A stretch of DNA of 64,000 nt from Eledone cirrhosa. Its lineage: Eukaryota. The stretch is taken from positions 211,606,001 to 211,670,000 of the forward strand of contig OZ024740.1 of the NCBI GenBank assembly GCA_964016885.1, read 5' to 3'. The notes under the pieces were generated by a model. The model was not told where the DNA came from and searched no databases. It saw only the letters and a list, made by a program, of their open reading frames with translations. A program made the translations under genes and the position numbers. Position 1 is the first letter of the stretch. Each line of letters begins with the position of its first letter. Shown piece after piece: positions 1,240-58,657 of the stretch.

Positions 1240-1305
1240 TATTTTGTCTGATGAAGGCATACCATATTTTTAATATGATATCCCTGAAATATATATAATG
1301 AAATA
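1240..1305 (+). ncRNA. Type I hammerhead ribozyme, family B
   Basis: tattttgt CTGATGA aggcataccatatttttaatatgatatccct GAAA TATATA TA atgaaata; stems I and II pair, stem III palindromic. Confidence 0.85.
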
Positions 1306-2001
1306 AATATGGTTTTATAAATATAGTTTCCATTTATTTAATATCGTATATATATATATATATATAATGTATATATATATATATATATATATATATATAT
1401 ATATATATATATATATATATATATATATATATATATATATATATATATATATGTATGTATATATATATATATATATGTATATATATATATATATGTATAT
1501 ATATATATATGTATATATATATATATATGTATATATATATATATGTATATATATATATGTATGTATATATATATATGTATGTATATATATATGTATGTAT
1601 ATATATATGTATATATATATATGTGTGTGTATGTATGTATATATGTAATTATACATATACGTATATATATATATATGTATACATGAATGTATGTATAGTA
1701 TATTTGCCAATATACCGTATGTTTAATTAAAAACATTATATATGTGTGTATCTATGTTTGTATATATATATATATATATATATATATATATATATATATA
1801 TATATATATATATATATATATATATATGTATATATGTCTGTCTGTATATATATATATACATAATATATATATATATATATATATATATATATATATATAT
1901 ATATATATATATATATAGTATTAAGGGTACTATTTATGGTTATGTATGCAATAAAACCTTTGATGGTAATATATTATATATACACAAACCCTAAATAGTG
2001 A

Positions 2002-3009
2002 GAGATAGTCTTATTTAATAATAAGAATAGCAACTGCACACACACTAATAGGGATTGTAACAACAAGAGTAACCCGCACCACAGAAATGACCATAGGAAC
2101 ATTAAAGGAAACAAATCACCAGACATAAAAAACAGTAATAGAAGAAGAAATAATACATTTTTCAACCCTCCTTTAAATTTAAACGTCTCTACCAACCTTC
2201 CTAGGGCTTTCTTCTCACTACTAGATAAACACTTCCCATCCGGCCACAGGTACCACGGCCTTTTAAACAAAAACACTATTAAGATCTCATACTCTACTAC
2301 GCCTAACTTAGCATACCACATAGCTAGTACAAATAAAAGAAAAATTAATTCTTACTTCCAACAAACTAAATCACAACGGCCGATAAACCTTCAAAATAAC
2401 ATTCAAAATGACAGTCAAAGTAACATTATAACAAATAACCGTAATATCAATGGAAATAGTAGTAATAGCACTAGTGTAAACATTAACGCTGCGTACCACA
2501 ACCCGCATAACCATAACCCTATAGCTAACCTCCAAACTTCTACACAGCATAGTAACCGGCAGACTAGCACTCAGAGTAATTGTAACTGTAGATCAAGTAG
2601 AACCTGCCCTTTAGATAAAAAATGCTTAACCAAGGATATCATATACTCATGTACGGTCACAACTAACAGCTCTTCTGAAACCTACATAGGCTCCACTTCT
2701 AACTGCTTCAAAACTAGATACAATTCGCACCTCCACTCTTTCAAAAAACACAGTCTAGCCAACTCCACTTCACTATCTAGCTACATACACTATCTAAAAA
2801 CTAAAAATAAAATATATACACTTAAATGGGAAGTGGTAGGTAGTGCAACATCGTACAAACCACCCGATAAATTTTGTAACCTCTGTCTACTAGAGACCCA
2901 TACTATCATCTTCTCTAAACATAATCTCCTTAATAAAAAATCAGAAGTGTTCGCAAATTGCCAACACCGCTTCCGACACTCGTTCCAAAACTTTAAACCC
3001 TATATATAA
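2002..3009 (+). pseudogene. PLE ORF C-terminus: RT thumb, Asn-rich linker, CxCx5Cx5C zinc finger, GIY-YIG endonuclease (335 codons, no ATG)
   Basis: Frame +1: RRRNNTFFNPPLNLNVSTNL..LDKHFP..NKNTIKISYS..CNCRSSRTCPLDKKCLTKDIIY..TYIGST..FKTRYNSH..CNLCLLE..LLNKKSEVFANCQH*. Confidence 0.92.
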
Positions 3010-4550
3010 TAATGTCAGACTGGAACCGGCACCACCCCTAGCAATTAACATCAGTAGCACACCTTACACCTCACATCCACACCCATCTCTATACTCTAAA
3101 GATAATACTGACAGCATTTGAGTGCCACCTACCCTGGGAATACCCCCTTGTACTTCTAATACTGATATCCCGACCGTGGACTACTTATTCTGCATTGCAC
3201 AAATATAAGATTAGTATAAACTGGGGACACGGTACAGGTTGTGATAGCATAGTCCTGTGCATGGATTACCACCAAGAGATAGATTGATGATTAGATAGAT
3301 AATCGTATTGTTAAGTGAGTATATACTGTAAGCGATCAGTTCATTGAATTATGCACGTAATCATCTTGATGTGGACTCCTTTAATACCTATTAATAGACT
3401 CCACTCTAGCTTGGAGATGTGATACATAATTGATTTATATTTGAGACGGGGGTTGTCTATTACCTGATGGCCAGACTAGTGCGTTTATATGAGAGATCGG
3501 ATCTCCGGAACATACCGAAGATTTACTGGAGATGCAGGCAAGCAATGACCCGGAGCCTACCGGGTGGCATATATAATAGTGGGACCATACCAGGTCCTAC
3601 TGTTGTATTACATTTGCATGGAACAGTGACTTGAGAGTCCGACTCCTCTTATAGAACGTTTAGATATGACACCCCTTAATTATTGGTTGGCAATCATCCT
3701 AGTATATACACCCTTGTACTTCTTAATGAACAACTCTCTAACTTATAAATGGGTACCATACTCTAGATATTAGTTATAACTTCACATGATAGGCACGTAT
3801 TTGAATCACCATTAATGTAGTTTAGCATAGTAATGTAACTAAAATAACTAGCTAGTTACCTCCCCTTACGCATTAATTCCCCTTAATCATTCAGGCACTT
3901 CCGGAATTTGGACAGCATGATATATTAATTAAGAACCGACTGGATACCGTTTATAGCTTGACTATATGCTGAACCACTGCGAATTATACGATAGACGCGT
4001 GTTCTCTATATATATATTGCGTCTCATGGATTATGTGAGTGGTGGTGTGAGCAAGGACAGTGGTACGACCTTGCCTACGATACAATAAGGTTTATAGTAT
4101 GTTGAAGGTTTTTGATATTTTGGTGTTTCCCCGCATCCGAGACTGTATATCATACAGATGTATGAGAATAAATGACTTAATAATTCAGCCTATATTATAA
4201 GATCGATTGCCTGCTTCAACTGCCTGACCCTGCAAATATCATTCTGACGCACTCTAATCATGTATAGATAAGACAAGCGTGCATGCTACACGGGAGATTG
4301 CTTCATGCACTGACTACTCTAAGCTTTCCTCTTGCTTTATCTTCATAGACTGCCAACGCTTCATGTTTATCTTTATTTTCACTCTTGCTTTTATTTTATT
4401 TTATTTTATTTTATTTTTATCATGTAACACTTTATATGTAAATTGCCATGCTATTTCATTTGATGAATGTCACCCCACTGTTGATCAATATGCGCATATG
4501 TTTTATGTGTCTCTTGGGTTGAAAAGGAGGTCAAGTATGTTATAAGTAGC

Positions 4551-4597
4551 TGCTCCGAAGAATCCAAACCTCGGTTTGGAGGAAACAATTGTAAGCA
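4551..4597 (+). ncRNA. Degenerate type I hammerhead at the PLE 3' end
   Basis: tgct CCGAAGA a tccaaacc tc ggtttgga g GAAA CAATTG TA agca; U4>C change in the core. Confidence 0.65.
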
Positions 4598-4656
4598 AAT
4601 AAATGACTTAAACTGAACTTTGATTACTGTAATCTCTCTCTCTCTATATATATATA

Positions 4657-57300: not shown

Positions 57301-57409
57301 TGCTTTTGTGTATGCAAAAATATCTGTACACGAATATATAATTATATATATACGACGGCGATGAATACGTTTTGCGAGGTTTTTGATATGAAATCGTGTG
57401 TCGAAACAA

Positions 57410-57752
57410 ATATTGTTATACTTGGGGAGGGTCGTATTGTTGTAATAATATTGCTAGAAATAATAACAGAACACACTCACTGTTTGGTTGGTTTTCGCTT
57501 CTGTATCTTTTATATCTCCACAGTTAATTCATTTGGTCCTCAATGTTTATCATTGACTGACCAACGGTAAAAAATACAGATATAATATAGATATTTGACC
57601 GTTGGTCAGTCAATGATAAACATTGAGGACCAAATGAATTAACTGTGGAGATATAAAAGATACAGAAGCGAAAACGAACCAAACAGTGAGTGTGTTCTTA
57701 TTATTTCTGGCATATTATTACAACAATATGACCCTCCCCAAGTATAACAATA
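57410..57752. repeat. ~160-bp-arm palindrome abutting (TA)n
   Basis: Arms ~57410-57568 / 57598-57752; no HHR core seen. Confidence 0.85.
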
Positions 57753-57801
57753 TATATATATATATATATATATATATATATATATATATATATATATATA
57801 T

Positions 57802-58202
57802 GCAAAAGTTCTATTTAAAATTGTTGGGATACAACAAGTAAATATTTTTATAACTGATATAAAGCACTCGACAAGTATTTGGAGTAGATATACGATATTA
57901 ATAAATGGAAACTATATTTATAAAACCATATTTATTTCATTATACATATTTCAGGAATACCAAATTAAATTATGGTATGCCTTCATCAGACAAAATACAA
58001 TATATAACAGTTTTACAAATAAGCTTTGTTCCAAAAACAATGGTTGCATTTTAATAGGGTACGTCAAAGCTTATTTGTAAAACTGTTATATATTGTATTT
58101 TGTCTGATGAAGGCATACCATAATTTAATTTGGTATCCCTGAAATATGTATAATGAAATAAATATGGTTTTATAAATATAGTTTCCATTTATTAATATCG
58201 TA
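57802..58202. mobile_element. Family B palindrome with HHRs at 57933-57997(-) and 58096-58160(+)
   Basis: tattttgt CTGATGA aggcatacca..tggtatccct GAAA TATGTA TA atgaaata; spacer 58029-58064. Confidence 0.9.
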
Positions 58203-58245
58203 TATATATATATATATATATATATATATATATATATATATATAT

Positions 58246-58657
58246 AAGTTCTATTTAAATTGTTGGGATACAACAAGCAAATATTTTTATAACTGATATA
58301 AAGCACTCAACAAATTATTGGAGTAAAGATATGATATATTAACAAATGGAAACTATATTTATAAAACCATATTTATTTCATTGTACATATTTCAAGGACA
58401 CCAAGTCAAATTATGGTGCGCTTTCATCAGATAAAATATAATATAGATCAGTTTTATAAATAAATATTGACATACCCTTAAAGAATGCGACCATTTCTGT
58501 TGGAAGCTCCCGGATAGTGGGGTTATTAAATTTAAGGGTATGTCAATATTTATTTATAAAACTGATCTATATTATATTTTATCTGATGAAAGCGCACCAT
58601 AATTTGACTTGGTGTCCTTGAAATATGTATAATGAAATAAATATGATTTTATAAATA
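58246..58657. mobile_element. Family B palindrome with HHRs at 58374-58438(-, U16.1>C) and 58575-58639(+)
   Basis: tattttat CTGATGA aagcgcacca..tggtgtcctt GAAA TATGTA TA atgaaata. Confidence 0.9.

Follow-up and report, generated by a model that had tools for sequence, protein, structure and literature searches.

The 64,000-nucleotide stretch of the Eledone cirrhosa genome analysed here (C1:211,606,001-211,670,000, hereafter the window) carries type I hammerhead ribozyme (HHR) motifs, and our comparison of genomic copies supports two statements about them: the stem II structure of families A and B is selected, in aggregate and with relatedness allowed for, and the self-complementarity of stem III is conserved. 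From the sequences we consider it probable that the HHRs reside in the pseudo-long terminal repeats (pLTRs) of Hydra-clade Penelope-like elements (PLEs) and in truncated copies of them, the fold likely being under purifying selection on the element RNA in each round of retrotransposition. The element type is already known and this is a very large new example of PLE hammerheads; the additions are a quantified selection signal and a high-copy lineage with C in place of U at core position 4 (U4C).

Hammerhead motifs in the window and the genome

Descriptor scans returned 10 and later 14 HHRs in the window, and about 18 are reached by adding a profile search and hand reading. By family there are 12 B, three A and a single member of C, D, E and F apiece, with truncated halves in addition. 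The HHRs sit within (TA)n, many of them arranged as inverted pairs; the microRNA-precursor matches that Rfam gives in the window arise from the inverted repeat, and the output of an inverted-repeat finder was dominated by (TA)n. A structure check on HHR copies found three helices around the core, with helix I open-ended. The core CUGANGA...GAAA...UH is present in families A, B, D and F, and H17 (positions are given in hammerhead numbering) is A, C or T in every copy read.

The genome, 3.0 Gb and rich in microsatellites, holds the motif in large numbers. A similar descriptor found 25 matches in 600 kb (60 evenly spaced 10-kb stretches) compared with 0.33 in Markov controls. A pattern in which the stem I anchors and core are fixed while stem II and all six bases of stem III may vary has 65,475 matches (32,894 + 32,581) and none in the reversed control; because this single free-stem pattern lists both A and B forms, we treat the two families as one superfamily. 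Over the whole genome the HHR motif matches exceed 75,000.

Stem II pairing in families A and B

A preliminary description of the window had proposed that family B stem II varies but keeps pairing. All the stem II and stem III strings it quoted are present; the positions attached to three stem II examples (58096, 38144 and 53859) do hold them, but mark ends of whole ribozymes rather than of stem II, the second copy lies on the minus strand (38144-38208) and the third, with its gtaccaaa/tttggtac stem, is 5'-truncated in stem I.

We anchored the A/B alignment on the core and not on pairing. De-duplication took 242 matches to 213, of which 193 span the ribozyme; removal of seven rows with anchor gaps, one with a stem II deletion, four segmental-duplicate copies and two rows out of register left 179 copies representing 130 insertions. 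One base is omitted from the 3' arm of the 21 copies of a bulged subfamily. Nine of the ten stem II positions are paired in 84-98% of 185 A/B copies. Position 4 of stem II, in conflict with the proposal, pairs in one of the 185 and is a C·C or C·T mismatch in 176. This mismatch is kept across subfamilies that differ at most other pairs, and is a candidate tertiary or protein contact.

Stem II changes that lie between subfamilies or are shared within them keep pairing in 23 of 27 cases, whereas private changes do so in 9 of 25 (Fisher p = 0.00048). The count is restricted to clusters of three or more insertions (126-146 copies), 9-13 subfamilies in all. Three alternative clusterings, two of them blind to the stem columns, yield p = 0.0011 to 6e-6, and 11 of the changes between subfamilies are two-sided. 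When columns were evolved independently along trees with the observed number of changes per column (two trees, each with three transition ratios), 58-81% pairing was obtained compared with 94% observed, a value reached by 0 of 500 simulations in all six settings; the 11 two-sided types likewise exceed the 3.6-4.9 simulated (0 of 500). Slid registers of stem II are 29-48% paired. A pair-count tool applied to 81 family B haplotypes gave 95.5% pairing and a score of 0.263 compared with 0.186 after shuffling, in an alignment that includes one non-ribozyme row and three out-of-register rows, both of which lower its counts.

Moreover, the favouring of G·U over A·C in shared changes points to one RNA strand. 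By hand tally the ratio of G·U-type to A·C-type changes is 22:3 among shared and 9:10 among private changes (p = 0.007), and a count of position states gives 13:4 and 4:8, respectively (p = 0.03).

Stem III palindromes

Stem III was held to be palindromic among family A relatives and across families. TGCGCA (26 copies) and TACGTA (3) bear this out in the A/B set of 186; the other states are TATATA (47) and the commonest family B form, TATGTA (100), which is self-complementary solely via G·U. A/B stem III is 97% paired, above the simulated null (reached in 0-18 of 500), and the comparison of shared with private changes, made for stem III alone, gives p = 0.026 to 0.44 across clusterings. Genome-wide, two transition-mismatch classes account for 444 and 397 of the 65,475 matches (about 0.6% each) and are scattered over subfamilies, as decay would be.

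Family C repeats the A/B pattern independently, with the series CAATTG, CAGTTG and CAGCTG; the A·C alternative CAACTG makes up 50 of 8,409. Among the 100 matches listed, a hand count found about 64 CAATTG, 20 CAGCTG, 16 CAGTTG and 0 CAACTG. The quoted CAATTG is accompanied by a CCGAAGA core. In family E most copies have CAGGGCCCTG; the quoted instance of it, at 23439, belongs to a copy without the 5' core, and the intact copy in the window reads CAGGTCCCTG with a TTGATAA core.

In families A-D, folding predictions disfavour helix III within one molecule, as a hairpin, and favour it between two (for A/B, +4.7 kcal/mol for the hairpin and -2.2 to -10.5 for the dimer), in line with the double hammerhead put forward as a model for PLEs. 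Among predicted duplexes, homodimers (-2.2 to -24 kcal/mol) outdo most of those formed across families, the exceptions being TATGTA with TACGTA and family F with family D.

Core variants

Core position 7 was described as variable (T, A or C), and it is so in the window; elsewhere it can also be G. In a set of 50 insertions collected without a core pattern, all four bases occur at N7, and any deviation at the conserved core positions is confined to one or two insertions. Two family-wide variants had been overlooked. Family E carries U3 with A8 in 99 of the 100 matches listed, out of 334; PMC3088659 and PMC4209133 describe this exchange of the tertiary pair. In family C, 9,630 of 10,134 matches have U4C; this variant is known from a viroid (Ambros and Flores 1998, as cited by PMC3088659). 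A literature search for U4C hammerheads, with the supplements of PMC4209133 outside its scope, turned up no PLE family with it.

Association with Hydra-clade Penelope-like elements

Reading of the sequence places the HHRs of families A, B and C downstream of putative Hydra-clade Penelope-like open reading frames (ORFs) of RT plus GIY-YIG type. At locus L170, an 808-residue frame (P0001) stands between two family A HHRs in direct orientation, 3.7 kb apart; in it RLRW, DKT, YRDD, CxCx5C (CNCPVKNKC), CxxC (CNLC) and CxH (CLH) motifs and a GIY-like stretch were read by eye. The ORF at L253 has RVRWR, also read by eye, which matches the RW-type mark of the clade. Both ORFs show the Hydra-clade marks set out in section 11 of PMC8557442: an RWK-type motif, DKT for DKG, a CxCx5C linker, CxxC plus CxH in the endonuclease (EN) and no CCHH. 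Searches of P0001 against Pfam and PDB sequences gave no match, and in the Atlas it is placed at 0.95-0.98 with HTH_animal, GIY-YIG and RVT_1 clusters.

Direct HHR-bearing pLTRs flank an ORF at L170 (family A) and L260 (family C), and related ORF pieces lie upstream of family B and C HHRs at several loci, including the window fragment at 2002-3009, about 1.5 kb upstream of the family C HHR. Long open Hydra-type frames stand upstream of U4C ribozymes at L253:3122-5458 (778 residues) and L177:252-2273 (674 residues); they suggest that family C may have been active recently. Most copies in the window are inverted arms that are 5'-truncated, carry a tail on one side and lie in (TA)n, as described for PLEs, and insertion into (TA)n is as in the Hydra clade.

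Families D and E occur as direct repeats of about 430 nt (D; L247) and about 320 nt (E), and no ORF linked to either was found in 20 loci each. A link of family E to the ORF at L261:4339-6545 (minus) was rejected, microsatellites and unrelated DNA intervening. This ORF, near but unlinked to the family E copy, is a broken PLE of another clade with a DKG motif and GIY-YIG with CxxC, which we take to be of Poseidon type. A direct family E pair in L251 flanks transposase-like ORFs, presumably Tc1-like.

At L065:281-3381 (minus), 11 or more units of about 310 nt stand in tandem; every unit carries the identical type I HHR, with helix III CGCG, and the array resembles a retrozyme-like satellite. Random stretches revealed more HHR families at L034:6761, L048:2454, L049:7739, L075:5310 and L087:8607, with helix III palindromic or nearly so.

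Features of the window

Hammerhead motifs and the PLE fragment in the window; n.b. pair numbers refer to stem II.
Feature	Position	Strand	Details
Family A HHR	533..603	-	Core damaged (G8A); stem III TGCGCA (minus 548)
Family A 3'-half copy	685-862	+	Near 533..603
Family B HHR, left arm	1037..1102	-	~120-nt tail follows, (TA)n at its end
Family B HHR, right arm of inverted pair	1240..1305	+	Pair 8 C·A; stem III TATATA
Hydra-type PLE ORF, 3' fragment	2002..3009	+	Linker CxCx5C; GIY-YIG-like endonuclease; 37% identity to P0001 over 293 aa
Family C HHR	4551..4597	+	Core CCGAAGA (U4C); stem III CAATTG (4586)
Family E HHR, intact	23149..23193	-	Core TTGATAA (U3-A8); stem III CAGGTCCCTG; ~320-nt tandem-type unit
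Family E inverted copy	23414..23552	+	CAGGGCCCTG at 23439; without 5' core
Family B HHR	34917..34982	-	Subfamily with broken pairs 1 (A·C) and 8 (G·A)
Family B HHR, inverted partner of 34917..34982	35160..35225	+	Full tail
Family A HHR	36152..36222	+	N7 = C; stem III TGCGCA (36207)
Family D HHR	36581..36623	+	Stem III CTAG (36612); family also as ~430-nt tandem units
Family B HHR	38144..38208	-	N7 = A; stem II aagcacacca/tggtgtcctt
Family A relative HHR	53378..53447	-	N7 = A; stem III TACGTA (minus 53393)
Family B short-loop HHR	53740..53800	-	One private broken pair
Family B short-loop HHR	53859..53915	+	Stem II gtaccaaa/tttggtac; stem I cut on 5' side
Family B HHR, left arm	57933..57997	-	One G·U change
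Family B HHR	58096..58160	+	Stem II aggcatacca/tggtatccct; stem III TATGTA
Family B HHR	58374..58438	-	Cleavage-site U16.1 -> C
Family B HHR	58575..58639	+	Stem II aagcgcacca/tggtgtcctt
Family F HHR-like motif	60067..60130	+	Stem III CCACTGG
Family B copy, degenerate	61396..61461	-	GAGA replaces GAAA

About 3.7 kb of the window (55732-59457), including the ribozyme cluster at 57933-58639, is duplicated in inverted orientation some 60 kb away (L121:5455-8758) at 96-99.6% identity. At 34494-34722 a near-perfect 230-nt palindrome lies between (TA)n tracts, with a smaller one adjoining at 34320-34400; no hammerhead core was seen on the arms of either. Unrelated to the ribozymes are broken non-LTR retrotransposon ORFs (endonuclease, RVT_1 and zf-RVT matches) at 5002-7945, 31493-32293, 46307-46882 and 54594-56091. 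A 75-nt tandem repeat at 10355-11362 (13.4 copies, 98% matches) lies inside an open frame that ends in a MIEAP match and is possibly an exon, and a 6.2-kb array of a 25-nt unit (23621-29861, about 249 copies) has a strong C-over-G skew.

Discussion

A number of observations weigh against a selected, working ribozyme fold. Rfam reports no hammerhead in the window at gathering score, nor in 57800-58800 at E <= 10, and 99 of the 179 aligned copies came from loci retrieved with a pattern in which the core, the outer pair of stem III and part of stem I are fixed. Sign tests on phylogenetically independent pairs, where events are too few, made none of the pairs listed significant; the covariation suggested by the preliminary description stands in aggregate against simulated trees, but not for any of these individual pairs after phylogenetic correction. 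Spanning-tree edges are not strictly independent events, and arm-to-arm differences keep pairing in 15 of 25, above the private class, although some of them seem to come from mixed templates. One subfamily, with 10,249 genome matches, has lost pair 8 and often pair 1 as well; its predicted hairpin is weaker (-4.9 to -5.5 compared with about -8 kcal/mol). Four of its members are in the window and had been passed over when stem II was said to stay paired: 1248/1094 break pair 8 and 35168/34974 break pairs 8 and 1. Pair 10.1-11.1 is A-U in 151 of 185 A/B copies, not the typical G-C; among 55 family C copies, about three quarters leave it unpaired. On folding single copies, 4 of 11 lie beyond z = -2 and some minimum-energy folds are not hammerheads. 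U4C lowers hammerhead activity in vitro (PMC3088659).

For stem III, two-sided changes in A/B are no more frequent than the null (1 observed, about 0.5-0.85 simulated), and where ribozymes of different families cannot be aligned, their palindromes reflect a common constraint and do not count as covariation. The selected structure first proposed is thereby upheld for stem II in aggregate and for stem III self-complementarity, but not as two-sided change in stem III; the palindromic strings cited across families exist, without being covariation.

The strongest competing explanation, to which we give a minor share of the probability, is that selection keeps the fold as a signal of the element ribonucleoprotein for protein binding or reverse transcription, cleavage being weak or dispensable. 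In an Anolis PLE, HHR cleavage needs protein and catalytic mutants still insert in vitro (PMC11167929), a dispensability that keeps this explanation alive; the fixation of U4C in family C, the A-U closing pair, the conserved C·Y at stem II position 4 and the success of the subfamily with broken pairs fit it too. A binding signal accounts less readily for conserved core positions that deviate only privately while N7 is free, for the U3-A8 swap of family E, which is specific to the catalytic fold, or for H17 being A, C or T in every copy read.

It is improbable that the apparent covariation is inheritance from a few randomly changed master elements, inflated by copy number. The small number of subfamilies, the lack of a significant pair among those listed in the independent-pairs test and the single two-sided change in A/B stem III agree with such inheritance, but the excess of retained pairing persists with each subfamily change counted once, simulated trees do not reproduce it and family C shows the pattern independently. 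Least probable of all is that DNA-level processes in inverted repeats (hairpin-templated repair or quasi-palindrome correction) kept the pairing rather than RNA function: the elements do lie in long inverted repeats and TA-rich DNA, where TATATA is trivially palindromic in this genome, but DNA hairpins would show no one-strand G·T preference of the kind seen in shared and not in private changes, TATGTA is common while its mirror class TRCAYA is rare, the position 4 mismatch persists and U3-A8 is not a hairpin pair.

If, as we favour, selection acts on the ribozyme fold of the element RNA, helix III would be too weak within one molecule, and two ribozymes would pair their palindromes into an 8-bp helix. 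The partners could come from a single tandem transcript, as its two pLTRs, or from separate transcripts; once paired they would cleave after UH, probably helped by an element protein, and so cut unit-length RNA out of read-through transcripts. Copies such as those in the window would decay neutrally after insertion, with selection only on lineages still jumping. Indeed, because private changes freely break pairs, selection is placed on mobile lineages and not on genomic copies.

A bolder model, which we regard as doubtful, makes the helix III palindromes a family-specific pairing code, with in vivo cleavage required for retrotransposition and with a 9,600-copy lineage fixing a slowed U4C core. 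Were it true, an active double hammerhead would arise only between PLE RNAs of one family. Such a code would resemble the dimer-initiation palindromes of retroviruses.

The pLTR-borne HHRs of metazoan PLEs (Cervera and de la Pena 2014, PMC4209133) are likewise type I, with a long helix II and a small palindromic helix III suited to dimers, and occur as thousands of mostly solo copies, with opposite-strand pairs 100-700 bp apart and the U3-A8 core swap; these families were already stated to be "full of covariations" with palindromic helix III. Here, unlike there, A/B copies number 65,475 rather than about 2,000-9,000 motifs, A10.1-U11.1 replaces G-C, the C·Y mismatch is conserved and selection is quantified through shared and private changes. 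The portions of that paper compared here make no mention of a U4C family.

PLEs of the C-terminal EN+ Hydra clade (Craig et al. 2021, PMC8557442) share the RW motif, DKT, CxCx5C, CxxC/CxH around E and N, the absence of CCHH, (TA)n insertion and a canonical HHR with palindromic helix III, and the supplement to that paper lists a cephalopod member. Our units differ in being about 3.7 kb, with a 3' region of 1-1.5 kb, where the clade is "generally <3 kb", and in U4C, since the HHR cores listed in File S2 all begin CTGA and none CCGA. Non-LTR retrozymes (PMC7229834; bioRxiv 10.64898/2026.07.22.740005), whose tandem units of about 300-430 nt each hold one type I HHR, are a possible match for families D and E and for the L065 array, in contrast to families A, B and C, which are ORF-tied and mostly inverted truncated pairs. 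Both U3-A8 covariation and U4C are known among natural core variants (Perreault et al. 2011, PMC3088659), but variants are described as rare there, whereas U4C is the majority in a family of about 10,000 matches with near-intact ORFs (L177 and L253).

Hammerheads may or may not benefit PLEs: insertion in vitro does not depend on cleavage (PMC11167929), and HHRs may be mere parasites of PLEs, an idea raised in PMC8557442. In this setting the more than 75,000 motif matches amount to a natural mutation-selection experiment, in which fold and core are kept in the lineages that jump. The genome also offers natural alleles: G·U intermediates, U3-A8, U4C, a broken pair 8 and incompatible palindromes.

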